Source of the DNA: a virus
Length of the DNA: 43,327 nucleotides
IMG/VR virus record: IMGVR_UViG_3300045988_005956
Span: 1 to 43,327 of that record
Strand: one strand, 5' to 3'
Numbering within the stretch: the stretch's first letter is position 1; every line of letters starts with the position of its first letter. Shown here one piece after another: positions 20,877-33,200 of this stretch. The position numbers were made by a program, and so were the translations under genes. The notes below the pieces were generated by a model, which saw only the letters and a list, made by a program, of their open reading frames with translations, had not been told where the DNA came from and made no database searches.

Positions 20877-21274
20877 GCCTTTGCGTCTCTGAGCCCTTCG
20901 CAGCCCTGCCGCCGCTACGCATTGCTGAGCTTTACATTGCCTTTGCCATGCCGATCAATGCCCATCTCTGCCCTTGCCTGTCGAAGCAAAGCGCGCGTTA
21001 CTACGCCGTTGCCAATCCTTGCTTTACTTCGCCCTTGCCACGCGATCTTTGCTTTACTTTGCCTTTGCCGCGCCAGTCCAGGCCTCGCCGCGCGGCTCAT
21101 AGCCCTCGCGTCGCTTATCCTAGCCTTTCCATCGCAAAACATAGCATCCCATGCCGCCGCGAAGCCAGACTATTCTTTGCCTTTGCGAGGCACATCAAAT
21201 CTCTACAGTGCCGTTGCCACGAATTGCATAGCAAAGCCTTTGCGTACCCAGCATTGCAATACCAAGCCTTTGCT
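20877..21274. repeat. Iteron-like array: at least 10 copies of GCC(T/C/G)TTGC(C/G/T), including three about-25-bp units GCTTTAC(A/T)T(T/C)GCC(T/C)TTGCC
   Basis: Copies start at 20877, 20939, 20970, 21005, 21031, 21061, 21179, 21210, 21236 and 21266. The long units are at 20929-20953, 21021-21045 and 21051-21075, and the last two form a 30-bp tandem. Confidence 0.8.
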
Positions 21275-21381
21275 TCGCTAGAAGCGTCCGGCGCTTTCGA
21301 CGCGATGAAATCCCGCGCCACGTTCTCATTGCTCGGCCACGTGCCAAGCACAGGCTCCAAAAATGTTAATCTGACTTTCAT
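21115..21381 (-). pseudogene. Probable remnant of a conserved early phage gene. The N-terminal about 33 aa are intact, then the ORF runs into the repeat array.
   Basis: An RBS (GGAAGGA) precedes MKVRLTFLEPVLGTWPSNENVARDFIASKAPDA, which resembles the N-terminus of a larger Firmicutes phage protein family. The remaining 55 aa are encoded by repeat DNA and look non-protein-like. Confidence 0.35.
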
Positions 21382-21439
21382 TTGCGTTTCCTTCCTTTTC
21401 GTTTGTTCTTAGATTTTTGCAAGCGCCAAAACCGGATAC

Positions 21440-21682
21440 TTAGTAATCAAAGGAGTCCAAAAACTCCTCCCGCGTGATTCCAAGCCGCTTGCAAATTGCG
21501 ATTGTCCCTTTCATCTGCTCACCCAATGGCTCGCGCATTCGCTTTGTCAGCGTCGTTTTGCTTGATACCCCGGCAAGTTTAAGCAGGTCATCTAGTTTTA
21601 CGTTTCTCTCCTTTACCCTCCCATAAATCAGGCGGGACAGGTTCTTCGACGTATTGTCCCGGCTGAACTTTACCGCTGGCAT
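21440..21682 (-). CDS. Small HTH regulatory protein (DUF739-like; Xis-like role possible)
   Basis: 80 aa with LDDLLKLAGVSSKTTLTKRM. An AAAGGAGGG RBS precedes it. It is the second gene of the early leftward operon. Confidence 0.6.
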   Translation of the reverse strand: MPAVKFSRDNTSKNLSRLIYGRVKERNVKLDDLLKLAGVSSKTTLTKRMREPLGEQMKGTIAICKRLGITREEFLDSFDY

Positions 21683-21683
21683 G

Positions 21684-21878
21684 TTATCCCTCCTTTTTCG
21701 GCTTCAAAAGCTCGTCCACTGTGCAGCCGTACAGCTCTGCGATTTCGTGCAGTCGCGCCGTCTTCGGGTACATCTGCCCGGTTTCCCATAGATAAACAGA
21801 TGCGTCCGAAACCTTTAGCGCCTTGACTACCTGTTGAACGGTCAATCCAGCGGCAAGCCTCGCTTCCTTAAACCCCAT
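21684..21878 (-). CDS. Cro-like XRE-family HTH repressor
   Basis: 64 aa with LTVQQVVKALKVSDASVYLWETG. It is divergent from the CI-like gene. Confidence 0.8.
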   Translation of the reverse strand: MGFKEARLAAGLTVQQVVKALKVSDASVYLWETGQMYPKTARLHEIAELYGCTVDELLKPKKEG

Positions 21879-21905
21879 GTCTTTACATACCTCCTGTCTG
21901 TGAAT

Positions 21906-21930
21906 ACTAAGTTTTTCTTGACAACTTAGT
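21906..21930. promoter_or_regulatory. Operator-like inverted repeat ACTAAGTT-N9-AACTTAGT overlapping the -35 box
   Basis: The repeat is seen directly. Related half-sites (CTTAGT/ACTAAG) recur at 21437-21443 and around 22391-22435. Confidence 0.45.
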
Positions 21931-21945
21931 GAATTGTGCTATTAT
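21918..21945 (+). promoter_or_regulatory. Sigma-A type promoter TTGACA-N16-TATTAT with an extended -10 TGc
   Basis: TTGACA lies at 21918-21923, TG at 21937-21938 and TATTAT at 21940-21945. It points toward the lysogeny genes. Confidence 0.6.
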
Positions 21946-22030
21946 GAAAGTACCACCTATCATTATCCACAATCCGTTAAGTTGTCCGGGGCGTTGTTCT
22001 TTTCACGCCTCATAAGCCGAGGCATGAATC

Positions 22031-22252
22031 ATGTGCAAGTCGTTCAGAGAAAGAATCAGGTTGTTCCTCAATCGGAATAAGCGTTACAAGTCCATAGAAG
22101 AAAACGGTCTAAATGTGCTTGTCGAAACCGAAGGCTCGAAAGCACGCACGGAGAAAAGGCGGTTTCTTATCAACATGTTTTTCACCGTCGTATCTGCCGT
22201 CGCCGCAGTCGCTGCCGCGATATTTGCCGCCCTTACTTACATCAACTCGTAA
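22031..22252 (+). CDS. Small basic protein with a C-terminal transmembrane helix
   Basis: 73 aa ending FLINMFFTVVSAVAAVAAAIFAALTYINS. It lies downstream of the promoter at 21918. It overlaps an antisense ORF (22109-22354), so it is uncertain. Confidence 0.4.
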   Translation: MCKSFRERIRLFLNRNKRYKSIEENGLNVLVETEGSKARTEKRRFLINMFFTVVSAVAAVAAAIFAALTYINS

Positions 22253-22478
22253 CGGAAGGCAATGACCGCACGCGCAATGGAACGTACCGAACTCGTCATA
22301 TCCGCAGTCTGAACCAACAATCTGAAATCCCCATATATACTTGTCTTTCTTCACGCCATCACCTCACTTGTAAGTTTTGCCCCTCACAACTCTTAGTATA
22401 GTTAAGTATATACTAAAAGTCAATAAAAACTTAGGATTGTTAAGGGTGCTTTTTTGCCAAATTTATGAGGGATTTTTT

Positions 22479-23069
22479 ATGCAATTTGACGTACAGTCCG
22501 TTATAAGAAGAATAGAAATAAGGCTTGCTGAAATTGGAATGACAAAGCAAGAGTTTTACGAAAAAAGCGGAATATCGTCTGGTTCTTTCTCTCAGTGGAA
22601 CACGGGGAAACACGCGCCAAGTATAAAGAAAGTTCAACGTGCAGCCAGTGTAATTGGGGTAACGACAGAATATCTCTTATATGGCGTAGACCCAATGCCG
22701 GACTTTGCGGTTAAATCGCCCATAGTCGCACGAATCAACTCCCTGCTTGCTGCAAAAGGTATACCGAAACAGCAGTTTTATAAGGATTGCAGTATTACGT
22801 CTGCATCGTACTCTCTATGGAACACAGGGAAAACAAACCCTTCTATGAAAAATCTTAAAATTATCGCAGAATATCTCGGTGTATCCGTGGCAGACCTGCT
22901 GCCGGACGAGGACCTCGTTCCGCAGGAGGGCATAAAAAAAGAGCGCCCCGCCGATGGCGAAGCGCCCGATCAAGACATGCTTCTTGAAATCGTAAGAGAT
23001 AGTCAAGATATGTCTTTCCTGCTGAAAGTAATGGATGAAGTAAATAAGAGTATACAAAAATTGCAGTAA
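22479..23069 (+). CDS. CI-like repressor with two tandem XRE HTH domains
   Basis: The ATG at 22479 follows GAGGGA. HTH 1 is MTKQEFYEKSGISSGSFSQWNTGKHAPS. HTH 2 is IPKQQFYKDCSITSASYSLWNTGKTNPS. Confidence 0.8.
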   Translation: MQFDVQSVIRRIEIRLAEIGMTKQEFYEKSGISSGSFSQWNTGKHAPSIKKVQRAASVIGVTTEYLLYGVDPMPDFAVKSPIVARINSLLAAKGIPKQQFYKDCSITSASYSLWNTGKTNPSMKNLKIIAEYLGVSVADLLPDEDLVPQEGIKKERPADGEAPDQDMLLEIVRDSQDMSFLLKVMDEVNKSIQKLQ

Positions 23070-23078
23070 GGAGGAGCT

Positions 23079-23303
23079 ATGTGCAGTTTACCGCCGTTTG
23101 CAGACTTCTTGTCTCAGATCAATATGGATTCCTTTTCTTATGATGTCGCGCGGTTTTCTACGGAGGATTTGAAGAAATCTTCCGATCTGTTTACAAAGGA
23201 ACAGTACGCATTCCTGATGAAGTCATACAATGCTATGGCTCTTGCCCTTCTCCAAAGCTACCATTCATGGCTGAACGAGCAGCTTCAACAATTACATCAA
23301 TAG
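23079..23303 (+). CDS. Hypothetical protein (74 aa)
   Basis: A strong RBS (AAGGAGG) lies 9 nt after the CI-like stop. Confidence 0.55.
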   Translation: MCSLPPFADFLSQINMDSFSYDVARFSTEDLKKSSDLFTKEQYAFLMKSYNAMALALLQSYHSWLNEQLQQLHQ

Positions 23304-23469
23304 GCATACGTACTGGATTTCGCTTTGCACTGTCTCTTATGGAAATCGTCTCCTCTAGAAGTTCGCCCAAAAGCTTATCGCGCATTTTCTCCGCTCTTAA
23401 CAACTGCGCGAGGCAGTAAACGAAAGCCACGAGCACAGCGAGTATAAGTGCAATCATAATAATTTTCAT
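23233..23469 (-). CDS. Small membrane protein
   Basis: The start MKIIMIALILAVLVAFVYCLAQLL follows GGAGGT. Its 3' end overlaps the convergent gene 23079-23303 by 71 nt. Confidence 0.5.
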   Translation of the reverse strand: MKIIMIALILAVLVAFVYCLAQLLRAEKMRDKLLGELLEETISIRDSAKRNPVRMPIDVIVEAARSAMNGSFGEGQEP

Positions 23470-23473
23470 TTCG

Positions 23474-23632
23474 TCAGTACCTCCAACTTTCAACATTGAC
23501 AATGCTTAGGATTCTTTTACATTCTTCGTTCGGAAGCTGTTTGATTTTTTCAATCAGTTCCGTTCTAAGTTCTTCAATGGGCGCAATTTCTTCACCCTTA
23601 TTATAGCACATATCGTCCTGAATACAAACCAT
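23474..23632 (-). CDS. Small hypothetical protein (52 aa), below the ORF-track cutoff as an independent ORF
   Basis: A GGAGGG RBS lies 7 nt upstream of the ATG at 23632. Translation begins MVCIQDDMCYNKGEEIAPIEELRTELIEKIKQLPNEECKRIL... Confidence 0.45.
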   Translation of the reverse strand: MVCIQDDMCYNKGEEIAPIEELRTELIEKIKQLPNEECKRILSIVNVESWRY

Positions 23633-23692
23633 TTTGCGCCCTCCCTCTTCAATCTTCCAAATTTTATCGTTTCTTTTTGTATAATTTTGACC

Positions 23693-23721
23693 TTGAGACT
23701 GTAAAACTCTGGTGGTAAAAT
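23693..23721 (+). promoter_or_regulatory. Candidate promoter TTGAGA-N17-TAAAAT upstream of 23754
   Basis: The hexamers are read directly, and the promoter lies about 30 nt upstream of the RBS. Confidence 0.35.
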
Positions 23722-23753
23722 TGTTGTATCTTACAAAACCGGGGGTTCGTATC

Positions 23754-24587
23754 ATGCCAAAGGATGTATATTCCGTCAAATGTCCTCGTTGTGGGGAAGC
23801 GTTTGACGAAAGACTGAAAGAGTGCCCGAACTGCGGGACTTGGAACCGAAAAGTTATCTGCCGCTCTTGTGGCGCGCAGATTAACGCCAGTGAGAAGAAG
23901 TGTCCGGCCTGTGGTGCGCGCCGAGCGAAGAAGCAAAACCCGCTCGGAAAAGCGCTTATTGTGGCAATCCCAATCGCCATTATCATTATGGTTGCCGTCC
24001 TTCTGATTCCCCAAAAAGCGCCGAGCAGCACGCAGACCTCTCCGGCAAGCGCTTCGGTATCCTCACCGACAAGCACGGCAACGGATACGCAAGAAGGAAC
24101 TTCCACCACATCGATTTCCGCCGAAAAAACGCCCGGTCGCACGATCGAGCTTACCGTTCCCGCTGATTTCCTCGACGAAGGAACGACGCAGGAATCACTT
24201 GACGCAGAAGTCAGCAAAGCGGACGGATTTATCTCCGCCAAAATTAACGCCGACGGCTCTGCCACATATGTCATGACGGAATCCAAGCACAACGACCTTA
24301 TGCAAGAGCTGCGGCAAAACATCGATACCGAGCTTGCAAAAATGGCTGATTCTTCCGACTATCCAAATATCGTTTCTGTCTCCGCTTCCAACGACTACAC
24401 AGCGTTTACAGTGACGCTTTCCACGGATACTGTTGGCTTACAAGAGTCCATCATGGTTATGGCCTTTTATATGTACGGCGGTATGTACAACGCATTTAAC
24501 GGAACTCCGGCGGATAACGTATCTGTACAGTTTGTAAATCAGTCTGGAACCGTTCTGGAATCGGCCAATTCCCGCGATATGCAATAA
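23754..24587 (+). CDS. Double zinc-ribbon / single-pass membrane / S,T-rich linker / extracytoplasmic-domain protein
   Basis: The ATG at 23754 follows GGGGGT. The zinc ribbons are CPRCG..CPNCG and CRSCG..CPACG. The TM segment is LIVAIPIAIIIMVAVLLI, followed by SSTQTSPASASVSSPTSTATDTQEGTSTTS. Confidence 0.7.
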   Translation: MPKDVYSVKCPRCGEAFDERLKECPNCGTWNRKVICRSCGAQINASEKKCPACGARRAKKQNPLGKALIVAIPIAIIIMVAVLLIPQKAPSSTQTSPASASVSSPTSTATDTQEGTSTTSISAEKTPGRTIELTVPADFLDEGTTQESLDAEVSKADGFISAKINADGSATYVMTESKHNDLMQELRQNIDTELAKMADSSDYPNIVSVSASNDYTAFTVTLSTDTVGLQESIMVMAFYMYGGMYNAFNGTPADNVSVQFVNQSGTVLESANSRDMQ

Positions 24588-24591
24588 GCGT

Positions 24592-24774
24592 TCAGTTCGG
24601 CAGCGGGCATTGGTTCCACTTCTCCCGTGTCTCGCCTACATCTGAGACGCAAGCAAAGAGCATGGGTGCTCCCTTGATGTAGTCCAGGCTTAGACTGTGG
24701 ACGTCCTTGAAAAGTGCCCCGTCTACGATGATGTTTACTTTCCCGTTTTCAAAGCGAATATTGATGCTCTGCAT
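24592..24774 (-). CDS. Small hypothetical protein (60 aa)
   Basis: A GGAGGT RBS lies 8 nt upstream of the ATG at 24774. The gene is convergent with 23754-24587. Confidence 0.4.
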   Translation of the reverse strand: MQSINIRFENGKVNIIVDGALFKDVHSLSLDYIKGAPMLFACVSDVGETREKWNQCPLPN

Positions 24775-24922
24775 TTGGTGTACCTCCATATTTTAGAACG
24801 TTCGTTCAGTAATTTCAATTTGGAATCTTCCACAAAGAACACCTTGCATTTTCTTCGTCCGGTAACCCTCGTAAGCGGCAATTATGGGACAGACTATTTT
24901 GTATAATGGAATGTTTAAGATC

Positions 24923-24957
24923 GCCCCACCGTCGCTCCCCCGGCGGTGGGGCTTTCT
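24923..24957 (+). terminator. Intrinsic terminator-like hairpin (9-bp GC stem GCCCCACCG/CGGTGGGGC followed by TTTCT)
   Basis: The hairpin is seen directly. The T-rich tail is present only on the plus strand. Confidence 0.5.
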
Positions 24958-25070
24958 CACGCGCCTGTAACCAGCATAGCAAAACTGGCAGAAATGTCCA
25001 CCCTCAAATTGGTAAAACCATACCCATAGCAGAAGAATCAGCGAAATATATGTGAAAATGGAGGTATATC

Positions 25071-25652
25071 ATGTCGGCAATTCAGGAACTCGCCCCATAT
25101 TTTTCTACATATCAGAGGAACATAAAGCGGGCGAAGGAAGATCAGCATTACACCATCGACAGACTTGTCGAAGAATCCGGCGTTTCCAGATCGGCTGTGA
25201 CGAAACTCTGCGCAGGAACACAGCAAGACCCGAAACTGTACAATTCTGCCGCGCTATGCCTCGTTCTCGGTCTGTCGCTGGATGAGCTGTGCGGGCTAAA
25301 ACCGCCTACTGACAGTCCAAGCGAACTACAGGAGCGGAACCACAGGCTTGAACTCGAGAACGTCAGAGCGGCCGCCGCAAACGAAATGCAGCGGGCGCAG
25401 ATCAAAGCCACACACGCTATCTGCTACCTGCTGGCCTTTTTCTGCGCCATACTTGCGTTTTCGCTGATCGTGTACCTTGTTATCGACTCGCAGATTACAG
25501 ACGCTGGTATTATCCGGGGCGGAAGGCTATCTGTAATGGCGTGGATATTTATTGCCTTGATTGTCGCGTCCATACTGGCCGTAGGCTTCACCATTCTTCG
25601 TATCGTCAAAAAGGAGATCCGAAATGAAAAAACTGAAAGTCCCAGAGGCTGA
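25071..25652 (+). CDS. Membrane-anchored XRE-family HTH protein (HTH, coiled coil, then 2 TM helices)
   Basis: The RBS is GGAGGT. The HTH is YTIDRLVEESGVSRSAVTKLCAG. The TM segments are ICYLLAFFCAILAFSLIVYLVI and VMAWIFIALIVASILAVGFTIL. The 3' end overlaps the int start by 29 nt. Confidence 0.7.
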   Translation: MSAIQELAPYFSTYQRNIKRAKEDQHYTIDRLVEESGVSRSAVTKLCAGTQQDPKLYNSAALCLVLGLSLDELCGLKPPTDSPSELQERNHRLELENVRAAAANEMQRAQIKATHAICYLLAFFCAILAFSLIVYLVIDSQITDAGIIRGGRLSVMAWIFIALIVASILAVGFTILRIVKKEIRNEKTESPRG

Positions 25653-26634
25653 AAAACTGCCGTCCGGCTCTTACCGATGCCGAGTGATGGTAAATGGGGA
25701 AGCGAGGTCGTTCACTGCCGGAACGAAGCGAGAAGCAGAGCAGGCAGCTTTAGAATACAAAATCGGTATCCTTTCTGCCGAGGAGGCCAAGCCGGAAATA
25801 ACAATCCGCAAAGCCATAGACGAATACCTGGAATTCAAGAGCGGCACTCTTTCCCCAGCGTCTATTCGCGGACACAGAATCAAGCAACGGTGTTACCTTC
25901 AACCTATTATGGATGTCCCCTTATCCAAACTCTCCGTGAGTGCTATACAGCAGGCGATCAACGCCGAAAAATGCAGCCCGAAGACCATCCGCGAAACATG
26001 GGCGCTGATACGTCCGGCGCTTAAGCGATATGGTGTATCATACGAAGTGGCGCTTCCCACCGTCCAATCTGACGAGCACGCTTTTTTGTCTGCGGAAGAA
26101 ATTCCTGTGTTTTTGAAAGCGGCAGAAGGGAGTAAGTATGAAATCGCGTTTCTTCTTGCACTGCACTCTCTGCGTGTGTCAGAAATTCTTGGTTTGCGTT
26201 GGGAGAACGTTGATCTAAAAAAGCAGTCTATCACGGTTCGAGGAGCTACATTGTTCGACGAAAACAACAAACTGGTAAACAAAGTGTCTAACAAAAACCG
26301 CTCTTCACGGCGGACTATCCCAATCATGGTACCGAGGCTGTCGCAGCTGCTTTCAGAAGCAGAAAGATCGAGTGATTTTGTCATCGTTGCAAATCCGAAC
26401 AGCATTCGCGCTGCATCAAATAAAATATGCAAGGAAGCGAATTTGCCAGAAGTCGGGACACACGGTCTGCGGCATTCCTTCTGCTCCCTTGCATATAAGC
26501 TTGGTATATCGGAAAAAGTCACGATGCAGCTGGGCGGATGGTCAGACTACGGAACAATGCGTAAAATCTATACACACATCGCACAAGCAGACATTTCCGA
26601 GTCTGTGCAGGAAATGAAAAAGTTCTTCTCTTAA
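25624..26634 (+). CDS. int: Tyrosine recombinase / phage integrase
   Basis: 336 aa with LALHSLRVSEILGLRWENV...HGLRHSFCSLAY...GGWSDYGTMRKIYTH, which is the R..HxxR..Y pattern. Confidence 0.9.
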   Translation: MKKLKVPEAEKLPSGSYRCRVMVNGEARSFTAGTKREAEQAALEYKIGILSAEEAKPEITIRKAIDEYLEFKSGTLSPASIRGHRIKQRCYLQPIMDVPLSKLSVSAIQQAINAEKCSPKTIRETWALIRPALKRYGVSYEVALPTVQSDEHAFLSAEEIPVFLKAAEGSKYEIAFLLALHSLRVSEILGLRWENVDLKKQSITVRGATLFDENNKLVNKVSNKNRSSRRTIPIMVPRLSQLLSEAERSSDFVIVANPNSIRAASNKICKEANLPEVGTHGLRHSFCSLAYKLGISEKVTMQLGGWSDYGTMRKIYTHIAQADISESVQEMKKFFS

Positions 26635-26656
26635 TTTTGCCACGATATTTGCCATG
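26635..26656 (+). repeat. Two arm-type direct repeats (TTTTGCCACG, ATATTTGCCATG) immediately after the int stop
   Basis: The repeats are seen directly and belong to the same family as the six copies at 26811-26897. Confidence 0.6.
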
Positions 26657-26700
26657 AAAATAAAAAGCGCAGTGTTTTCAACTGGTTTAAAGCTCAATTC

Positions 26701-26728
26701 GAGAGTTCGAATCTCTCCTTCCGCGCCA
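26701..26728 (+). other. attP core candidate: a tRNA 3'-end fragment (T-arm GAGAG-TTCGAAT-CTCTC, acceptor 3' strand CTTCCGC, discriminator G, CCA)
   Basis: The canonical T-loop and CCA are read directly. No matching 5' acceptor strand (GCGGAAG) or D-arm lies upstream, so this is not a complete tRNA. Confidence 0.7.
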
Positions 26729-26734
26729 AAGAAG

Positions 26735-26772
26735 AAACCCTGTAATCTCAAGTGATTACAGGGTTTTCCTTT
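26735..26772. terminator. Bidirectional intrinsic terminator (13-bp stem AAACCCTGTAATC/GATTACAGGGTTT with T-rich flanks on both strands)
   Basis: The hairpin is seen directly and follows the tRNA-like 3' end, as in host tRNA loci. Confidence 0.75.
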
Positions 26773-26800
26773 GTATATCAAGGCTTTCAGGCATTTCGAG

Positions 26801-26897
26801 CGTATCATTTATTTGCGATGCGTATCAATTATTTGACACGCAAAACACAATTTTGACACGCATTTTTGCCACGGAATTTGCCACGCTTTTTGCCTCG
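26801..26897 (+). repeat. Arm-type repeat cluster: a 20-bp tandem (CGTATCATTTATTTGCGATG / CGTATCAATTATTTGACACG) and six copies of (A/T)TTTG(C/A)C(A/T/G)(C/T)G
   Basis: Copies end at 26820, 26840, 26860, 26873, 26885 and 26897. All are in the same orientation. Confidence 0.65.
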
Positions 26898-27245
26898 TCA
26901 TAGGGACTTTATTTTTCTTAAAACAGAATCATATACCCTTCGGTTTACAAGTGAAAGCGTGTCCATGAGTTCGTCAACGACCGTCCAAGCCTTCGCCGGG
27001 TCTTTCCCGGCTACCGCAAGCAAAAACTCACTGTCCCCGTAATCGCCCACGGTAGCCGGTTGCGCGGTAACAGGAGCGGGAGCGCCGGAGTAGTAACCCA
27101 CATACCTACCGCCGTCGCCCCGTTCCTCTTCCTGCATCTTGTCGCGTATCACATATAGGTTCGCCAGTTTGGCATAATTGGGATAGCTGGATTCTTCGTA
27201 TTCCAGCCGTGCTATTTCCTTTCGGATTTCGGCTTCATCCAGCAT
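26898..27245 (-). CDS. Hypothetical cargo protein (115 aa)
   Basis: The RBS is AAGGAGGG. It is the last gene before attP. Confidence 0.6.
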   Translation of the reverse strand: MLDEAEIRKEIARLEYEESSYPNYAKLANLYVIRDKMQEEERGDGGRYVGYYSGAPAPVTAQPATVGDYGDSEFLLAVAGKDPAKAWTVVDELMDTLSLVNRRVYDSVLRKIKSL

Positions 27246-27257
27246 GTCTTTCCCTCC

Positions 27258-27629
27258 TTATGCTCTGTCAATCTGCTCCATGCAGCGGCGGATAGCCTCG
27301 CGCGTCTTATCATCGTCCGCGTCGCGCATCATGTCTTCCAGCGTCGAGCGCATATGCTCCCGAGCATCGGTCCGGCTGTATCGCCCCATAGAATCGCGAC
27401 GCCTGCCACGGTAGGAGCTTCCGCGCCCATACGTGCCGCGCATGTCCGCCTCCCACTCTCCGTCACGCGAATACCCGCCATCCTCGAGCATTTCGATTTT
27501 ATAAGTGTTCTTGATGGAACTGGTAAGCTTCTGGATGGCATCCAGATCGCCAGCGGACATTTCGCGCTTGTCGGCGATTTCGTCCAGCTCTTTGCAGAGC
27601 ATTTCCCGAAGGTTTCTCAAATCGTACAT
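27258..27629 (-). CDS. Hypothetical charged protein with an R/S/Y/G-rich centre
   Basis: The ATG at 27629 (MYDLRNLREML...) lies 7 nt after GGAGG. The low-complexity stretch is GTYGRGSSYRGRRRDSMGRYSR. Confidence 0.6.
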   Translation of the reverse strand: MYDLRNLREMLCKELDEIADKREMSAGDLDAIQKLTSSIKNTYKIEMLEDGGYSRDGEWEADMRGTYGRGSSYRGRRRDSMGRYSRTDAREHMRSTLEDMMRDADDDKTREAIRRCMEQIDRA

Positions 27630-27643
27630 ATTCCTTCCTCCCT

Positions 27644-28066
27644 TCACGATACGCGCTCGACGATCATATTGCTATTTGCGAAACTGATCGCCTGTGCGCT
27701 GGTGTTCTTTGCTGCTACAGTCAGGCAGCAGCCGCGCGGAACTTCCACGAATGCAGAAACGTAGATGTTGAAATAGTTCTCAACAGCCGCAGGGGTTACG
27801 GTCGCTGTGGCGCTGTTCAAAGCCTCCCCGTTAATGGCGAGCGCAGCGGTGATAGCTCCGACTGTTCCGCCTGTAGGAATGGCGATATTCGCGCCAAAGG
27901 ATACACGGAACTTCGCCTTGCACTGCTGCGTCAGACCACGCAGCGTAACAAGTCCGCTTCCGTCACGGTGGACGATACACGGTTTGCCACAAGCCGACGT
28001 GGAAATTAGAGGGACGTTCTGCCCAGCGGCAACAGTTTGAATTCCGGATGATGTAAATTCAGCCAT
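27644..28066 (-). CDS. BclA C-terminal-domain-like (C1q/TNF jelly-roll-like) protein
   Basis: 140 aa with an all-beta-looking sequence. The end NSNMIVERVS parallels BclA ...SASIIIEKVA. The assignment is from memory of BclA and is unverified. Confidence 0.45.
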   Translation of the reverse strand: MAEFTSSGIQTVAAGQNVPLISTSACGKPCIVHRDGSGLVTLRGLTQQCKAKFRVSFGANIAIPTGGTVGAITAALAINGEALNSATATVTPAAVENYFNIYVSAFVEVPRGCCLTVAAKNTSAQAISFANSNMIVERVS

Positions 28067-28098
28067 AAAATCATTCCTTTCTGCCTCGAATTAGAGGC

Positions 28099-28132
28099 AA
28101 TTAAAATAGCGGCGGGACGATTGCCCCGCCGC
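28099..28132 (-). terminator. Intrinsic terminator (GCGGCGGG-loop-CCCGCCGC followed by TATTTTAATT on the minus strand)
   Basis: The hairpin is seen directly. It lies between the 262-aa gene and the BclA-like gene. Confidence 0.55.
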
Positions 28133-28199
28133 GTTGATCGAGTATCGGCAAGGAACCGATCATTTTCGTGACCTCACGAAAAAGCTCTACGTTATGGAG

Positions 28200-28988
28200 T
28201 TAAGCGCAGTTGCCGCAGCCGTAGTTATAGCCGCTATTGCAGCCTGCAAACTGGTACGGAGCCGGCACCGCGAACGACGGGACCGGACGCGGGTTATAAT
28301 ACGCCAGCTGTCCACTTACGTAGGACTTGAGCGTGTCGTTCTGCGCCGCCTGAGAAGCCGCCAGCTGCGCCGCAAAGAGCTGCTGGTTCTGCTCGGCAAT
28401 CTTCGCGTCCTTTGCAGCCAGTTCCTGCGCCGTCAATCTCTGGTCGATGCTGCGGAAGCCGCAGTTCATCGCGTCGATGATGTCGCGAGTGCTGTTCTGC
28501 ATCTGGTTGCGAGTGTCACAAGCCTGCGTCGCGAGGTTATAATTGATACCCTGAATCGCCTCTCTGGTCTCGCAGCAGCAGTTTGCAGCCTGCATCGCCA
28601 TGTTGTTCAGCTGCTGCATAAGCGCGGCCTGCTGATTGCAGCGGGAAAGCTCCGCCTGAGAGAAGCCGGAAGTCACAGCCTGCGTTACACCGGCAAAGCC
28701 GTTAAGCATCCCCGTGTTCATCGCATAGAAGCCGTCGCAGACACCATTGTTCACGCTGTCAATCTTTCTTTCGATGTTCGAGAAGTCAGAGGCCAGAACA
28801 TAGCCGTCAACAACGCCGCCGTTCCCTCCACGGTTGCCAAAGCCGTTTCCGTTACCCCAGCCGCAGAAAATCGCGAGGAACAGGATAATGATCCACCAGC
28901 CATTACCGCCGCCCCATCCGTTTCCGCCGTCCGAGTTTGCCGGAACTACAGGCATGTTCATAGGAATACCATCGCCATTCAAACTCAT
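28200..28988 (-). CDS. G/N/W-rich membrane protein with a Q/N/A-rich coiled-coil-like centre and Cys clusters
   Basis: The RBS is AAAGGAGA. The sequence contains GGNGWGGGNGWWIIILFLAIFCGWGNGNGFGNRGGNGG, ANCCCETREA and the C-terminal GCNSGYNYGCGNCA. Confidence 0.65.
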   Translation of the reverse strand: MSLNGDGIPMNMPVVPANSDGGNGWGGGNGWWIIILFLAIFCGWGNGNGFGNRGGNGGVVDGYVLASDFSNIERKIDSVNNGVCDGFYAMNTGMLNGFAGVTQAVTSGFSQAELSRCNQQAALMQQLNNMAMQAANCCCETREAIQGINYNLATQACDTRNQMQNSTRDIIDAMNCGFRSIDQRLTAQELAAKDAKIAEQNQQLFAAQLAASQAAQNDTLKSYVSGQLAYYNPRPVPSFAVPAPYQFAGCNSGYNYGCGNCA

Positions 28989-29069
28989 AGTTTTCTCCTT
29001 TCGTAGATTTTGAAATTTATCTCAATCGTGGCCACGATTTTGACCGTTCAGCTGTTCGGAATTTCTGAA

Positions 29070-29285
29070 CTACTGCATCAACTGCTGAAACTGTCCAGCC
29101 ATCTGCTGTAGCTGGTTCAACTGCTGCTGCGAGATTTTCCCAGACTGTACCAGCTTCTCAACCTCCGCCCTCGGGTCTCCCTGAAAGCTCTGCTTGAACT
29201 GCTGAAACTGCCGCATCATATTTTGAAACTGCCCAATAGCCCCGGGCATTTGCCCGCCGCCGAGTGCATTAAACAGTGGGTTCAT
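29070..29285 (-). CDS. Small Q-rich protein (71 aa)
   Basis: The RBS is AAGGAGG. The sequence contains QFQNMMRQFQQFKQSFQG...QQQLNQLQQMAGQFQQLMQ. Confidence 0.6.
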   Translation of the reverse strand: MNPLFNALGGGQMPGAIGQFQNMMRQFQQFKQSFQGDPRAEVEKLVQSGKISQQQLNQLQQMAGQFQQLMQ

Positions 29286-29739
29286 TGTCTGCCTCCTTCG
29301 CCTTTCTAACGGGCTTGACGCTCAGAGCCGCCACCTTTGCCGCCAGTTCGTCAAAGTCCTTGCGGGTCACGTACTCCACCGTGGGCGCTGTTTGCGGCGC
29401 TGTGGGGCTCACGGGGGCTGTAGAGCGCTCTACGAGGTCATACGTTGTCATTGCTGGTTTACCGCTTGCGTCGGCTTTCTTCACATACACAACCGGTGCA
29501 TTCATATCCCAAAGCGTGACAGCGTTATTCGGCGCGACGATAAATTCGTTTGCCGCCTTTTCGTTCGGAACCCAGATGATAGACTGTCCCCCGCTCGGTT
29601 GCTGTGGCTGTGGTTGCGGAGCAGGATACTGCATCGACGGCGCAGGCTGATACTGTGGACGCATCATTGGGTCCTGCATCATGGGCGGTTGATTGTAAAT
29701 CGGCTGCTGATACACATAAGGCTGTTGTCCGAACATCAT
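29269..29739 (-). CDS. Protein with a P/Q/M/Y-rich N-terminus and a small globular domain
   Basis: The RBS AAGGAGG lies inside the upstream gene's end. The N-terminus is MMFGQQPYVYQQPIYNQPPMMQDPMMRPQYQPAPSMQYPAPQPQPQQP. Confidence 0.6.
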   Translation of the reverse strand: MMFGQQPYVYQQPIYNQPPMMQDPMMRPQYQPAPSMQYPAPQPQPQQPSGGQSIIWVPNEKAANEFIVAPNNAVTLWDMNAPVVYVKKADASGKPAMTTYDLVERSTAPVSPTAPQTAPTVEYVTRKDFDELAAKVAALSVKPVRKAKEADNEPTV

Positions 29740-30119
29740 TTATCCTCCTTTTCCCAGTAGAACAGCGGGATTTCGTTCCCGGAATCCCAGCTATCAAAAT
29801 ACTTTCCGTCCTCTACGCACACGACGTGGCTTGATAGAGCTAGTACATACACACCGCGCGGATGGTCTCTCGCGAATTCCTCGACCGTATAGCAGTCCGG
29901 GCATGTGTTCGGCACAACATTCCGGGTAAATCCATGCTGCCGGAGGTACGCGCCCCAGACACTGTTTGCCGACGGCATGTCCCCCATTTTCAAACCCTGT
30001 AGGCAAAGCCCAACATATGTTTCATCCCAGCTCTTTCCCGTCGCCTTCGCAATCGCCCGAACGGTACAGTCTCCGACTTGTTTTCCTTCCGGGTTTGGAT
30101 TGAAATAAGAAAAGCCCAT
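29736..30119 (-). CDS. Papain-fold-like (Cys...His) hypothetical protein
   Basis: The ATG at 30119 lies 8 nt after AAAGGAG. The candidate catalytic Cys is in VGDCTVRAIA. The candidate His is in LSSHVVCVEDGKYFDSWD. Confidence 0.5.
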   Translation of the reverse strand: MGFSYFNPNPEGKQVGDCTVRAIAKATGKSWDETYVGLCLQGLKMGDMPSANSVWGAYLRQHGFTRNVVPNTCPDCYTVEEFARDHPRGVYVLALSSHVVCVEDGKYFDSWDSGNEIPLFYWEKEDK

Positions 30120-30184
30120 ACCGAACACTCCTTTGATGTGTCCAGTATGGGCTTTTTACTATTTTCCTGTGCCTCAGTTATGCA

Positions 30185-30367
30185 TCAGTTTTGCTCAAAT
30201 AAATATGTGGCAATCCAGCCGCGTATCAGTTCGTTTGGCGTCGTGCCGTTGGCCCTCGCTGCGGTCTTAAAGTTTTCCGCGATCTCCCGCTTGAGTTTGC
30301 AGGAGATCACGGACATGTTTTCTGCATCCCACTTGTCGCGGGTGCGCTTCTGCGCTTCCGTCGGCAT
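30185..30367 (-). CDS. Ribbon-helix-helix (CopG/Arc-like) DNA-binding protein
   Basis: 60 aa with a beta strand MSVISCKL followed by two helices. The ATG shares one nucleotide with the upstream TGA. Confidence 0.55.
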   Translation of the reverse strand: MPTEAQKRTRDKWDAENMSVISCKLKREIAENFKTAARANGTTPNELIRGWIATYLFEQN

Positions 30368-30567
30368 CAGTAGCAGGGGTTCTCTTTGCTGAGCTCCCAC
30401 TCTTCGCCATACTTGGCTTCGTGACGGGCCTCATACGCAGTAAAAAACTCCTGATCGGTGCATGGCGCAAGTTCCACGTGGAGATCTTCACGGATGTCAT
30501 CATCCATCAGTGCAACCGCCGCGTCAAAGTTGATTTCTGTACCGTTTTTGTTGATTACCATAGCCAT
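30367..30567 (-). CDS. Small acidic hypothetical protein (66 aa), the first gene of the cargo operon
   Basis: The RBS is GGAGGG. Translation begins MAMVINKNGTEINFDAAVALMDDDIREDLHVELAPCTDQEFF... Confidence 0.6.
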   Translation of the reverse strand: MAMVINKNGTEINFDAAVALMDDDIREDLHVELAPCTDQEFFTAYEARHEAKYGEEWELSKENPCY

Positions 30568-30612
30568 TTTTAAACCCTCCGTAATTTGTATTTGGTTTAT
30601 CTCTATGGTCTC

Positions 30613-30641
30613 ATTATATACGGTATTACCGTATATGTCAA
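30613..30641 (-). promoter_or_regulatory. Perfect consensus sigma-A promoter TTGACA-N17-TATAAT
   Basis: The -35 box lies at 30641-30636 and the -10 box at 30618-30613 (minus strand). It is about 45 nt upstream of the ATG at 30567. Confidence 0.8.
30616..30636. promoter_or_regulatory. Operator-like perfect palindrome ATATACGGTA-T-TACCGTATAT filling the promoter spacer
   Basis: The 10-bp arms are read directly. The palindrome overlaps the -10 box and touches the -35 box. Confidence 0.7.
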
Positions 30642-30660
30642 GGGCTTTTCAAAAATTTTT

Positions 30661-30694
30661 ATAAAAAAATAAGCGCCGAGAAACCGGCGCTTAT
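30661..30694 (-). terminator. Intrinsic terminator (ATAAGCGCCG-loop-CGGCGCTTAT followed by TTTTTTAT on the minus strand)
   Basis: The hairpin is seen directly, 2 nt after the stop of 30696-30944. Confidence 0.8.
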
Positions 30695-30695
30695 C

Positions 30696-30944
30696 TCAGT
30701 TATACAGTTTGTTGGATGTCCGCTGCATCTCCCGCACGATACCGGGAAGCCGCCTCTGTACCGTAGCGCGGCCAATATACAGCTCTGTCGCAACGTCAAC
30801 CTGTGGGAGCTTATCCACAAAGTAGAGCTGCGCGATCTTTGCGTCTTCGCGGCCGAGATTCGATTGGTAAATAACCGTCTCCATATCCCGGCGCATCAGT
30901 CCGCCAAGCTCCGGCGGGAGTTTTGCCCGCGCCTGCGGTGCCAT
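30696..30944 (-). CDS. Sigma-70 region-4-like HTH protein (82 aa)
   Basis: The sequence is EDAKIAQLYFVDKLPQVDVATELYIGRATVQRRL. The RBS AAGGTGG lies 12 nt after the endolysin stop. Confidence 0.55.
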   Translation of the reverse strand: MAPQARAKLPPELGGLMRRDMETVIYQSNLGREDAKIAQLYFVDKLPQVDVATELYIGRATVQRRLPGIVREMQRTSNKLYN

Positions 30945-30956
30945 AATAACACCACC

Positions 30957-31649
30957 TTACTTCATCGCAGCTGCGAGTTTTTTGAGAAGATCGTCGCCGT
31001 ATTTATACGCGGCGAGGTAATCGATCGTGCTGTCTGTAAGACCAGCCTTCTGCTTGATGGTCTTCTTTGCTTCCTCGACGGCCTCGTCGACCTTCACGGT
31101 GTCGTACTCGACCCAAGGGAGCTTTCCGTGCTTCCGCCAATTGCGGGCGTGGTAGCCTGCTTTCGTGCCGATGTTCTGGACGGCGGTGATCTGTGCGCCG
31201 TTGTCCCAGATCGGGGTGCATTCGACCGCCAGACCATCACCGATGTACATGCCCCAGTGACCGGGCATCCAGAGACCTTCGCCTGGAATCAGCTTGTCCC
31301 AGCCGATGCCGGACACGGCGTAGCACTTGGCGATCATGCCGTCGGCGGAGACATCCGGCACGCTGTTCGAGGCGTACCTTGCACCGCCGTAGTAAGCGTT
31401 TTTGTTGCCGTTCCAGCCCCAGAGAATGCCCTTCGTGAGGTTCACGCAGTCAAAGCCATAGACAACTTTTCCGATGAGGCTGCGCAGATATGTGACTCTG
31501 CCGCTGGTGTACCAGTCCGGGTACTGGGCGGATTTCTCGTCAATGATCGTTTCGCTCACGGGAGAGCCGAAGCAGCCCCACATGTAGACGGTCTTGTAGT
31601 TCTTCGCAACGTCAATGTGCCTGCGCACAAGCTCAGATGCTTTCATCAT
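30957..31649 (-). CDS. Endolysin, NlpC/P60 (C40 peptidase)-like
   Basis: The motifs are YMWGCFG, FDCVNLTKG (Cys) and GHWGMYIGDG (His). It lies immediately after the holin-like genes. Confidence 0.7.
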   Translation of the reverse strand: MMKASELVRRHIDVAKNYKTVYMWGCFGSPVSETIIDEKSAQYPDWYTSGRVTYLRSLIGKVVYGFDCVNLTKGILWGWNGNKNAYYGGARYASNSVPDVSADGMIAKCYAVSGIGWDKLIPGEGLWMPGHWGMYIGDGLAVECTPIWDNGAQITAVQNIGTKAGYHARNWRKHGKLPWVEYDTVKVDEAVEEAKKTIKQKAGLTDSTIDYLAAYKYGDDLLKKLAAAMK

Positions 31650-31885
31650 TTCTTTTCGACCTCCTGCGGCGTACTCGCACTGTCAAGCACATCCTGCGTC
31701 TTCTGGGACTGGGTCCCGAAATAAAACGCGATAATGACGGCGTAGATCGTCATAAAGTCCTGCGAGATCTTACCGGCTACAGACATGTACGCAAACACGC
31801 CCGTCAGGACCAGCGTAACCAGAGACTTGACGCTGAGCAAATTGCCCAGCCGCTTTTTAATGTTATCCATATGTACCCCTTTCAT
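31646..31885 (-). CDS. Holin (2 TM)
   Basis: 79 aa with hydrophobic segments LVTLVLTGVFAYMSV and IYAVIIAFYFG. An alternative start lies at 31870. Confidence 0.6.
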   Translation of the reverse strand: MKGVHMDNIKKRLGNLLSVKSLVTLVLTGVFAYMSVAGKISQDFMTIYAVIIAFYFGTQSQKTQDVLDSASTPQEVEKK

Positions 31886-32145
31886 TCTACCGGTTCATTT
31901 TTCTTTGCGAATACTCGTTTAAATGCCAGCAGGCCCAGCTCTGTTACTGCCGCGCCCCCGGCGTAGCCGAGCACGTCGGACAGGTCGACCGACGTACCAA
32001 GCTCCGGGTTGCTTCCGACTGCGATAAGGACAGCGATGGTTTTAAGCGCGCACGCCCAGATCAGCACCATCGTCAGGAGTCTGAGCAGATAGATGACGAT
32101 GGTGCGCGCCATCTCGCCTTTGCTCCACTTGCCTTTTACCCGCAT
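31882..32145 (-). CDS. Holin-like membrane protein
   Basis: 87 aa with an RBS (GGGAGG) and 2-3 hydrophobic helices. Confidence 0.55.
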   Translation of the reverse strand: MRVKGKWSKGEMARTIVIYLLRLLTMVLIWACALKTIAVLIAVGSNPELGTSVDLSDVLGYAGGAAVTELGLLAFKRVFAKKNEPVE

Positions 32146-32159
32146 ATCCGCCTCCCGTT

Positions 32160-32504
32160 TTATTGCGCGATGCTATGCTCGCACTGCGCCTCCAGCTGAT
32201 GCAAAAACTTTTTTACATCGCCGTTTCCGCCCAGCTTGACGTATTTCTGCCCGGCAATCAGGCGCTCTGCCATCGGCATCTCCTCGGACATGATCGTCAA
32301 CCGCAGGATTGCAAGATACTGCTCGTCCTGATGCTCCTGCATTTTGCCGAGCTTTTTGTCGATCTCTGCAAGGTGCGTATCCTGCGTCGTGGTCTTCCCG
32401 CGCTTTTTCTGTATCGCGCTGACGACGGCATTGACGACCGCCGTCAGCGCGGACGAGCCGAGCACGGCGCAGACGAGGGTAACGATGATGGTCTTGGTGT
32501 CCAT
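32160..32504 (-). CDS. N-terminally anchored membrane protein (lysis-cassette associated)
   Basis: The RBS is AAAGGAGA. The TM segment is IIVTLVCAVLGSSALTAVVNAVV, followed by a charged helical tail. Confidence 0.5.
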   Translation of the reverse strand: MDTKTIIVTLVCAVLGSSALTAVVNAVVSAIQKKRGKTTTQDTHLAEIDKKLGKMQEHQDEQYLAILRLTIMSEEMPMAERLIAGQKYVKLGGNGDVKKFLHQLEAQCEHSIAQ

Positions 32505-32534
32505 GTGTTCTCCTTTCTCGCCCTCGGGCGGCTG

Positions 32535-33200
32535 TTATCCTTCTACATCCCATGCCTGCGGATACTCCGCGAGACTATATGCTGTGTCCTGGTTAGCTTT
32601 GGTGAACTTTCCGCCCTGCACTGCCCATTCTCCCGCCTTGTAAATATCGTGCGCGCCCGTCGGATGGACAAACTGCCGTGCCGTCTCGCGCGATGTCCCG
32701 TGATATGGCTTGTTGAACGTGTACCAGGCAGTCTTCCCCGGCGCGATATCCGGATAGACCGCGTTGTCATACGCCTGAAAACAAGTCCACGGCTCTCCAT
32801 CAACAAGGAACGTTTCACCCACTGTGTGCTTTCCCGCCGTCCATTCCGGGTACAGTGCGGAACACCGGATGATCTCGTCTGCTGTTTCCAGCTTCACATC
32901 CTTCATCAAAAACTGCACCGCGTATGCTATAGACGCATCCAAGTCGTATTCTACCGGCTCCTGCGCCATCGGCTGCGGCAGTGGAATATTGGTAAGCACC
33001 CAGAGCCCATCTGTAATTTCCTGCCGGAGATAATCTGCCGTGTCGAATGTCTGCATCTGGAAGCCATTGTTCGTGTAGACCGCAATAGACCCGGACAGAG
33101 CAGAAACGCCAGCCAAGCTTGCACCCTCAAACCGTACCGTCCCATCTGTGCGCGTCACGCGGATATTCGGGTACTGTATAGACTGATTTGTAATGTACAT
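32535..33200 (-). CDS. Tail-associated protein with a C-terminal carbohydrate-binding-like (CBM5/12-like) region
   Basis: The RBS is AGGAGA. The aromatic-rich C-terminus is YPEWTAGKHTVGETFLVDGEPWTCFQAY...AWYTFNKPYHG. Confidence 0.45.
   Translation of the reverse strand: MYITNQSIQYPNIRVTRTDGTVRFEGASLAGVSALSGSIAVYTNNGFQMQTFDTADYLRQEITDGLWVLTNIPLPQPMAQEPVEYDLDASIAYAVQFLMKDVKLETADEIIRCSALYPEWTAGKHTVGETFLVDGEPWTCFQAYDNAVYPDIAPGKTAWYTFNKPYHGTSRETARQFVHPTGAHDIYKAGEWAVQGGKFTKANQDTAYSLAEYPQAWDVEG

Follow-up and report, generated by a model that had tools for sequence, protein, structure and literature searches.

Known acr-aca operons and the locus at 30185-30641

Operons that combine an anti-CRISPR (acr) gene with the gene of an anti-CRISPR-associated (aca) regulator, and that have strong promoters and operators in the form of inverted repeats, are a well-established type. 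To our knowledge nearly all known Aca proteins are helix-turn-helix (HTH) proteins, and these HTH proteins serve as the standard anchors for guilt-by-association discovery of anti-CRISPRs. A ribbon-helix-helix (RHH) repressor which is encoded within the very operon it represses is Arc of Salmonella phage P22, the operator of which lies in Pant. Here we describe a locus on the minus strand of a viral DNA of 43,327 nucleotides (IMG/VR record IMGVR_UViG_3300045988_005956, positions 1 to 43,327, in the following called the window), in which a small gene of the AcrIC5 family (gene 1) is followed by the gene of a putative RHH protein (gene 2). The stretch 30185-30641, which comprises these two genes and their promoter, is in all likelihood an acr-aca anti-CRISPR operon of a temperate phage whose hosts are gut Clostridia (Oscillospiraceae or Acutalibacteraceae).

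The AcrIC5 protein of Pseudomonas was found beside aca1; it keeps the type I-C complex from CRISPR interference (CRISPRi), i.e. from binding to its target DNA (Leon et al. 2021, PMC7913775). It is also active against a heterologous type I-C system from Eggerthella lenta, and orthologues are recorded in Firmicutes and Actinobacteria (PMC7913775). A homologue encoded by a Bifidobacterium prophage is active as well (PMC10651486). The first and only reported RHH-type Aca is Aca14 from Pasteurella multocida, a protein of 66 aa whose inverted repeat overlaps the -10 element (Feussner et al. 2026, preprint 10.64898/2026.07.27.740549). In the case of Aca13, which is the C-terminal domain of AcrIIA32 from Streptococcus, the inverted repeats are located between -35 and -10 (PMC12282945).

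The locus described here pairs a known Acr family with a regulator of a type reported once before, namely for Aca14, and follows a known design; in this respect it is an ordinary system. An acr gene and a co-directional gene for a DNA-binding protein stand behind one promoter, and an inverted repeat covers the core promoter. The original prediction, which was made from the nucleotide sequence alone, had stated that this gene combination could not be assigned to a named system; it can be named as an acr-aca operon. As in acrIF1-aca1 of Pseudomonas phage JBD30 and acrIF8-aca2 of Pectobacterium phage ZF40, the promoter is strong, the small Acr gene comes first and the gene of the small DNA-binding autorepressor last (with repression being putative here), inverted repeats lie over the promoter elements, and a conserved regulator is combined with Acr genes that are shuffled among mobile elements. 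The differences concern the regulator, which is of the RHH type instead of the HTH type, the hosts, which are gut Clostridia, and the operator, for which a single spacer-filling palindrome of 21 bp is found instead of two or three separate repeats. RNA-level control is not evident here as judged from an Rfam scan only, which covered 26500-31200 and gave no match at the gathering threshold nor at E ≤ 1.

Two coupled genes behind one promoter

Gene 1 (30367..30567, minus strand) encodes an acidic protein of 66 aa and is by its sequence a full-length homologue of the AcrIC5 family. It matches the Pfam profile PF22147 (AcrIC5) over profile positions 1-53 of 53 with a score of 88.9 bits (cut-off 27) and an E-value of 2.2e-25. 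With phmmer, chain A of PDB entry 7YHR ('Anti-CRISPR protein Type I-C5') was found at an E-value of 1.2e-10; residues 5-59 of gene 1 pair with residues 4-59 of this chain, and about 27 of the 55 residues (about 49%) are identical. The acidic character, already noted in the original prediction, is reflected by an isoelectric point (pI) of 4.2 and by 16 aspartate and glutamate residues versus 5 lysine and arginine residues. Small size and strong acidity are those of a proposed DNA mimic. The Pseudomonas protein represented by 7YHR shares the full-length Pfam match and is likewise small, acidic and encoded first in an operon with a repressor, but its partner is the HTH protein Aca1, whereas the partner here is of the RHH type. 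By analogy to it the product of gene 1 would inhibit a type I-C system in this host. The identical gene 1 protein is encoded on 451 public contigs, on which it is annotated as 'hypothetical protein'. The 90%-identity protein cluster of gene 1 also contains members of an acidic family of 128 aa, which is treated further below. This mixed cluster is apparently a clustering artefact, because a direct comparison of gene 1 with that family revealed no similarity (E 1.1).

Gene 2 (30185..30367, minus strand) encodes a protein of 60 aa with a pI of 9, the putative autorepressor of the operon. Its ATG and the TGA of gene 1 share base 30367 (ATGA). The protein matches PHROG 7325 (CopG-like transcriptional repressor) with an E-value of 2.2e-5 and Pfam RHH_10 with an E-value of 0.012 and 16.3 bits, which is below the cut-off. 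Compared with the PDB a family profile matches the RHH proteins AvtR and PutA. The best Foldseek matches to gene 2 are all RHH proteins or domains as well (PutA, Arc, AvtR, AmrZ and the RHH domain of AcrIF25), with a root-mean-square deviation of about 1 Å across the helix-turn-helix part and with E-values that are not significant. Several weak but concordant matches therefore suggest that gene 2 encodes an RHH protein. The identical protein is present on 460 public contigs, annotated as 'Alginate and motility regulator', and one public record assigns a homologue to Hominenteromicrobium.

The acr promoter (30613..30641, minus strand) consists of the -35 hexamer TTGACA (30641-30636), a spacer of 17 nt (30635-30619) and the -10 hexamer TATAAT (30618-30613); the region 5' of TTGACA is A/T-rich. 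In a consensus scan of 21000-33000 this is the sole 12/12 match to TTGACA-N17-TATAAT, and for the whole window the one observed match compares with about 0.01 expected from first-order Markov simulations of the window. A palindrome of 21 bp (30616..30636), the putative Aca operator, has the form ATATACGGTA-N-TACCGTATAT with perfect arms of 10 bp. It fills the spacer and overlaps the -35 hexamer by 1 nt and the -10 hexamer by 3 nt. Only one perfect palindrome of the window has arms of 10 bp or more around a loop no longer than 3 nt, with about 0.125 expected. The only palindrome of this kind and the only 12/12 promoter thus coincide at 30613-30641, and since both counts are above the Markov expectation, promoter and palindrome are regarded as a real feature and not as a product of chance. 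Both had been pointed out in the original prediction with the same positions, and both proved to be as described and the only ones in the window.

Within the palindrome two sub-palindromes of 7 bp, TACGGTA and TACCGTA, can be distinguished, which are 8 bp apart from centre to centre. Two RHH dimers bind adjacent sites in the case of MetJ and Arc, and the two-box layout found here is compatible, by analogy, with two RHH dimers on neighbouring sites. A further copy of the operator with up to two mismatches in the 15-bp core could not be found anywhere in the window. The transcript would start with a 5' leader of about 39 nt (30568..30606, minus strand), for which the A of a conserved CCATAG is the predicted start as read from the sequence. 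The Shine-Dalgarno sequence GGAGGG of gene 1 is located at 30580-30575.

For the comparison with Aca14 its sequence was taken from Supplementary Table S2 of the preprint (10.64898/2026.07.27.740549). Both regulators fall in the same size range of about 60-66 aa, and both have an RHH part, putative in the case of gene 2, and an N-terminal helical extension with the motif [WY]-[DN]-x-E-N-[MY] in front of the strand. Both have an inverted repeat over the -10 element and are associated with several Acr families. However, BLASTP produced no alignment between Aca14 and gene 2, and hhalign of Aca14 against the gene 2 family gave a probability of 37% with a narrow and of 88% with a broad alignment. 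A search of 1.84 billion representatives yielded 459 hits at E ≤ 0.001, and a profile of the gene 2 family, built from 120 diverse members, scores Aca14 with 26.6 bits, PutA RHH with 22.5 bits, Mnt with 13.3 bits and Arc with 10.3 bits. As the unrelated PutA control comes that close to Aca14, the likeness is mostly one of fold. Aca14 in addition matches Pfam RHH_1 (CopG, PF01402) with 23.3 bits (cut-off 20.5), while gene 2 does not. The operators differ as well (TGTATATGTAAGCATATACA for Aca14 versus ATATACGGTAATACCGTATAT here), Aca14 also controls a second, neighbouring operon whereas the window holds no second operator, and the hosts are Proteobacteria in one case and Clostridia in the other. 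A placement of gene 2 in the Aca14 sequence family was therefore not adopted: gene 2 may work like Aca14, but is filed outside of that family, as the two are not demonstrably the same.

Two further systems share features with the locus. Arc is, like gene 2, a small RHH protein encoded in its own operon, and in both cases (putatively so here) feedback prevents harmful over-expression; Arc, however, controls the antirepressor Ant and not an anti-CRISPR, and the sequences are unrelated (about 10 bits for Arc against the family profile). Aca13 is also a non-HTH Aca from Firmicutes with repeats between -35 and -10, but is fused to its Acr, whereas gene 2 is separate. A relation of gene 2 to Aca13/AcrIIA32 was considered and dropped, as the search of the RHH family profile against the PDB returned no AcrIIA32 chain.

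Taken together, these elements suggest the following course of events. Upon entry of the DNA the consensus sigma-A promoter would fire at full strength, and a bicistronic mRNA would be made which ends at a hairpin behind gene 2 (30156-30100). By analogy to AcrIC5 of Pseudomonas, the gene 1 product would block target-DNA binding by the type I-C Cascade of the host, while the RHH protein of 60 aa would be made by translational coupling to gene 1. The accumulating RHH protein would then bind as dimers to the palindrome over both hexamers, RNA polymerase would be excluded and the operon turned down. The expected outcome is a brief burst followed by a low steady expression, also in the lysogen. The regulatory logic proposed in the original prediction, with a very strong promoter, a dyad operator and an RHH autorepressor from the same unit, was hence read correctly, where repression, and binding of the palindrome by the RHH protein, remain putative.

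A constant frame with exchangeable cargo

Loci with relatives of the gene 2 protein were compared in a set of 86 (80 viral and 6 genomic). The genomic ones derive from metagenome-assembled genomes of Oscillospiraceae, Acutalibacteraceae and other Clostridia, and the set as a whole represents phages of gut Clostridia. In 81 of the 86 loci the promoter-operator TTGACATATACGGTA-N-TAC(C/A)GTATATAAT is recognisable 5' of the RHH gene. Of the five others, two loci are truncated at a contig end, two carry RHH proteins with only 39-44% identity, and for one (L023) no such frame was found. The RHH gene starts about 75, 275, 450, 510, 680, 1020 or 1960 bp from the promoter, so that this distance changes stepwise. 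At least five different cargo sets are located within this constant frame of promoter-operator and RHH gene. No cargo at all is present in 3 loci. An AcrIC5 homologue is encoded in 13 loci, a very acidic protein of 128 aa without database match in 53 loci, a set of proteins of 77, 266 and 260 aa in 14 loci, an acidic protein of 90 aa together with a zinc-ribbon protein in 2-3 loci, and a set of proteins of 122, 131 and 194 aa in one locus (L084). Examples of the set of 77, 266 and 260 aa are found in L046:618-2477 and in L087-L090:4136-5977. The locus type is assigned to acr-aca because a constant promoter-operator and regulator frame small genes that are swapped, and because two of these genes are members of Acr families already known.

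The operator core TACGGTA-N-TAC(C/A)GTA is kept in close relatives. Substitutions are seen at the central base and in the middle of the right 7-bp box, whereas the TAC and GTA triplets are constant. The most divergent operator is seen in L084, whose RHH protein is 61% identical to gene 2 and has the predicted ribbon MTNVAARV in place of MSVISCKL. Both consensus hexamers of the L084 promoter are kept, but the palindrome in the spacer is a different one, ATATAGTGTT-T-AATACTATAT, at the same position. That regulator and palindrome co-vary is the strongest indirect argument for a reading of the palindrome by the RHH protein. The RHH protein of L084 (2501-2992) also has a C-terminal extension of about 100 aa.

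The start of the leader, CCATA(G/A), is kept across the cargo classes (30568-30612 in the window and the same position in L001-L084). The leader sequences fall into three classes, each of which is common to operons with different first genes. Such shared classes suggest either recombination at the gene boundaries or a function of the leader. The cassette occurs in both orientations relative to the lysis genes and therefore behaves as a mobile module. Extra genes whose start overlaps the RHH stop as ATGA are located 3' of the regulator in L008:2092-2625 (177 aa) and in L051:2692-3075 (127 aa, acidic); cargo can thus also sit behind the regulator.

The most frequent cargo is the 128-aa protein, for which no match could be found in Pfam, PHROG, NCBIfam, PADLOC and PDB. 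Its pI is 4.05, with 18 aspartate and glutamate versus 2 lysine and arginine residues (L013:2125-2511), and it is a good candidate for a new anti-CRISPR. The 260-aa protein carries the precomputed Pfam hit PF26125 ('AcrVA2-like'). Comparison of this protein with PDB sequences and PHROGs gave nothing informative, and tblastn detected only distant unannotated homologues in LE1-like phages of Leptospira and in Lactobacillus phage JCL1032. Zinc-ribbon proteins and proteins in the range of 260-290 aa, both unlike typical small Acrs, are also among the cargo.

These latter proteins give some room to a broader interpretation, according to which the RHH protein represses a hyper-variable early 'moron' slot with varied accessory or anti-defence cargo, and the AcrIC5-like protein does not act on CRISPR-Cas here. 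Most cargo proteins are unannotated, the zinc-ribbon and 260-290 aa proteins are atypical for Acrs, the type I-C target in this host is inferred, and Aca proteins are reported to also control anti-defence genes other than Acrs (10.64898/2026.07.27.740549). On the other hand, two independent cargo families match Acr families, namely AcrIC5 and AcrVA2-like, the latter by a precomputed label that was not reproduced. AcrIC5 homologues of distant hosts are active against type I-C (PMC7913775, PMC10651486), and with its small size and strong acidity the most frequent cargo resembles DNA-mimic Acrs. We consider such a general cassette quite unlikely and an acr-aca operon the better description of the locus.

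If the frame is taken as an acr-aca frame, it is possible, though in our view still slightly short of an even chance, that the RHH protein represents a second, so far unnamed family of RHH anti-CRISPR-associated regulators, which is specific to phages of gut Clostridia and whose promoter-operator marks a hyper-variable slot of new anti-CRISPR and anti-defence cargo. Were this true, the promoter-operator of 29 nt would be a direct search key in phages for which very few Acrs are known. Candidates for new inhibitors to which the RHH frame points are the 128-aa protein (53 of 86 loci), the acidic proteins of 90 aa and 122 aa, and the genes coupled 3' of the RHH gene. AcaFinder targets HTH proteins only and reports AcrIC5 beside ten different HTH families. 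Because only HTH proteins are searched, cassettes like 30185-30641 are invisible to tools of that kind. The RHH gene together with the 29-nt promoter-operator gives simple and specific access to a hot-spot of anti-defence genes in abundant phages of human-gut Clostridia, and the locus adds an independent Gram-positive example to Aca14, the sole RHH-type Aca reported.

The end of the operon, gene 3 and the neighbouring genes

Between the stop of gene 2 and the start of the following gene (gene 3) there are 65 nt, which are occupied by a terminator-like hairpin (30100..30156, minus strand). It consists of a 19-bp stem (30156-30110) followed by UUUUCUUAUUU, and the stretch of 111 nt with this hairpin folds with -37.4 kcal/mol (z = -5.6 versus shuffles). 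A strong GC-rich hairpin is found within a few bases 3' of the RHH gene also in phages with other backbones, and a strong hairpin is present there in most contexts examined. In L011 two substitutions in the non-coding 5' arm keep the pairing. As a strong hairpin recurs 3' of the RHH gene in other backbones, the hairpin 30156-30100 is read as the terminator of the acr-aca unit, at which transcription would end. Gene 3 has its Shine-Dalgarno sequence and its AUG in the loop and the 3' arm of the hairpin 30156-30110. Since the ribosome-binding site is sequestered in this way, gene 3 is predicted to be poorly expressed from this transcript; processing by RNase III, read-through or a leaky structure are possibilities for its translation behind the hairpin. 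The operon-ending hairpin may thereby also gate the adjacent genes by hiding their ribosome-binding site.

As an RNA anti-CRISPR in the form of a solitary CRISPR repeat is known beside AcrIC5 in Bifidobacterium, this possibility was considered here as well. It was rejected, as there is no match in the Rfam scan of 26500-31200 and the 19-bp stem of the hairpin is much longer than a repeat. A likeness to the 3' handle of type I-C CRISPR repeats is seen in the plus-strand 10-mer GGATTGAAAT (30097-30106). Since this 10-mer is part of the conserved FNPNP codons in gene 3 and is not preceded by a repeat-like stem, the likeness is probably a coincidence.

Gene 3 (29736..30119, minus strand) encodes a predicted papain-like Cys-His-Asp protein of 127 aa. 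The Cys...His arrangement which the original prediction had seen in this protein is borne out by Cys18, His98 and Asp109, which are invariant in 38 aligned homologues; more than 2000 relatives exist. In the AlphaFold2 (AF2) model, which has a mean predicted local distance difference test (pLDDT) of 93.7, C18 opens a helix (18-27), H98 is located just before a strand (99-103) and D109 closes another one (106-109). Order and placing of the three residues in the modelled secondary structure are as in papain-like enzymes. The best structure matches in the PDB are Josephin deubiquitinases, but these are weak (E 0.098, probability 0.77, TM-score 0.50). In a viral structure library strong matches are found only to many uncharacterised phage proteins, and the few weaker matches are named Peptidase C39, Josephin or NlpC/P60. 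A papain fold, as it had been suggested, is thus weakly supported by the residue placing, the quality of the model and the structural matches, and the term 'papain-like' is reasonable but not proven. Gene 3 has no match in Pfam, NCBIfam or PADLOC. The profile searches which had been proposed for all three proteins assigned gene 1 to AcrIC5, gene 2 weakly to RHH proteins and gene 3 only to PHROG 3754, a group with no assigned function.

The stop of gene 3 overlaps the start of a gene for a 156-aa protein (ATGA), which is followed by genes for proteins of 71, 262, 140 and 129 aa (27258..29739 in total, minus strand; PHROGs without assigned function). Homologues of gene 3 with about 65% identity head a series of about 150, 70, 260, 140 and 140 aa in phages without acr-aca cassette, where a terminator is likewise present 5' of gene 3 and the RHH gene is not. 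In other Clostridia phages lacking the cassette (L091-L094) the six-gene module is located between the lysis genes and a recombinase. Within the comparison set gene 3 is located behind the RHH gene in 38 of 86 loci and absent there in 48, and it is missing from 7 of the 13 loci that combine AcrIC5 with the RHH gene. Because the hairpin separates it from gene 2, because it is absent in 48 of 86 loci and because its module occurs without the cassette, gene 3 is considered, on the gene order of these loci, to be outside of the cassette, to head a neighbouring module of six genes with a distribution of its own, and not to be the partner of the RHH gene. The original prediction had described the first three genes as tightly coupled, which holds for genes 1 and 2 with their shared base, but not for gene 3 with its gap of 65 nt and the hairpin therein. 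As side observations, the 156-aa protein has an N-terminus rich in Gln and Pro, and the 262-aa protein combines an N-terminal region rich in Gly, Asn and Trp with the hydrophobic stretch WWIIILFLAIFCGW and an end rich in Cys.

The distribution of gene 3 also bears on the assignment made in the original prediction, which had seen in the three genes the logic of a toxin-antitoxin or abortive-infection module, with the RHH protein as an autorepressing antitoxin and the Cys/His protein as the toxin. It is true that RHH antitoxins which autorepress via palindromes are common, that gene 3 has a predicted catalytic arrangement and that the cassette is found in the moron position. Gene 1, however, is an AcrIC5 homologue, the partners of the RHH gene are swapped, gene 3 is not linked to it and recurs without it at the head of its own module, and a terminator-like hairpin is placed between genes 2 and 3. 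The RHH protein with its 60 aa also lacks the C-terminal extension of toxin-binding antitoxins, and none of the three proteins is matched by the defence models of PADLOC. The toxin-antitoxin assignment was therefore rejected on gene identity, missing linkage and missing PADLOC matches, and we regard it as extremely improbable. For the window this means a well-understood kind of system and not a novel toxin module.

A more serious alternative is an operon of three or more genes, in which partial read-through would bring the gene 3 module, perhaps with an enzymatic anti-defence function, under the same control, and in which the hairpin would be an attenuator or an RNase III site. In a consensus scan between the RHH stop and gene 3 no convincing promoter for gene 3 itself could be identified, other phages have cargo 3' of the RHH gene with overlapping stop and start codons, and the location of the gene 3 start signals (Shine-Dalgarno sequence, AUG) within the hairpin, which is kept in the gene-3-bearing loci examined, suggests a regulatory link. 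Yet the hairpin is shaped like an intrinsic terminator and sequesters the ribosome-binding site, homologues of gene 3 elsewhere also have a terminator 5' in places where the RHH gene is absent, and gene 3 is distributed independently of the cassette. We therefore prefer the two-gene acr-aca operon and consider the longer operon unlikely.

Several observations weigh against the acr-aca operon as delimited here. Termination is deduced from the shape of the hairpin, and read-through into gene 3 may occur. The RHH assignment of gene 2 relies on several weak matches, and in the AF2 monomer of gene 2 the beta-strand one would expect is absorbed into a long helix. Obligate dimers are often modelled in this way, but the fold is not confirmed by the model, and because the strand is drawn helical it was not counted for the RHH assignment. 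The AcrVA2-like label of the 260-aa cargo protein comes from precomputed hits alone and was not reproduced in a local Pfam scan, from which the model was possibly missing. Finally, most cargo is without known function, so that 'anti-CRISPR' may be too narrow a term for the cassette as a whole.

The promoter of the operon is directly preceded by the intrinsic terminator of the preceding unit (30660..30694, minus strand), as had been predicted. It has a perfect 10-bp stem and a 6-nt loop; its GC-rich arms at 30669-30678 and 30685-30694 (ATAAGCGCCG and CGGCGCTTAT) are 100% complementary and followed by the T-run TTTTTTTAT. An automatic terminator scan did not list 30660-30694, and the assignment is based on reading the sequence. 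The terminator is located just 3' of the stop of a gene for an 82-aa protein (30696-30944, minus strand), which follows an endolysin-like gene and thus stands between the endolysin and the acr promoter. Together with the lysis cassette this gene makes up the unit closed by the terminator. The 82-aa protein has weak similarity to sigma-70 region 4 and to sigma factors of the extracytoplasmic function (ECF) type. A relative of it with 42-48% identity is encoded convergent to the RHH gene in phages with an inverted cassette.

On the other side the gene of a tyrosine integrase (25624-26634) lies on the strand opposite to the cassette, and the unit therefore lies between the lysis genes and the integrase. 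It had been predicted to point toward the phage attachment site attP. It does point to the integrase end. A bidirectional hairpin with a 14-bp stem (26734-26767), likely a shared terminator, separates the 3' end of the integrase gene from that of the last gene on the minus strand, and the attP region should be near.

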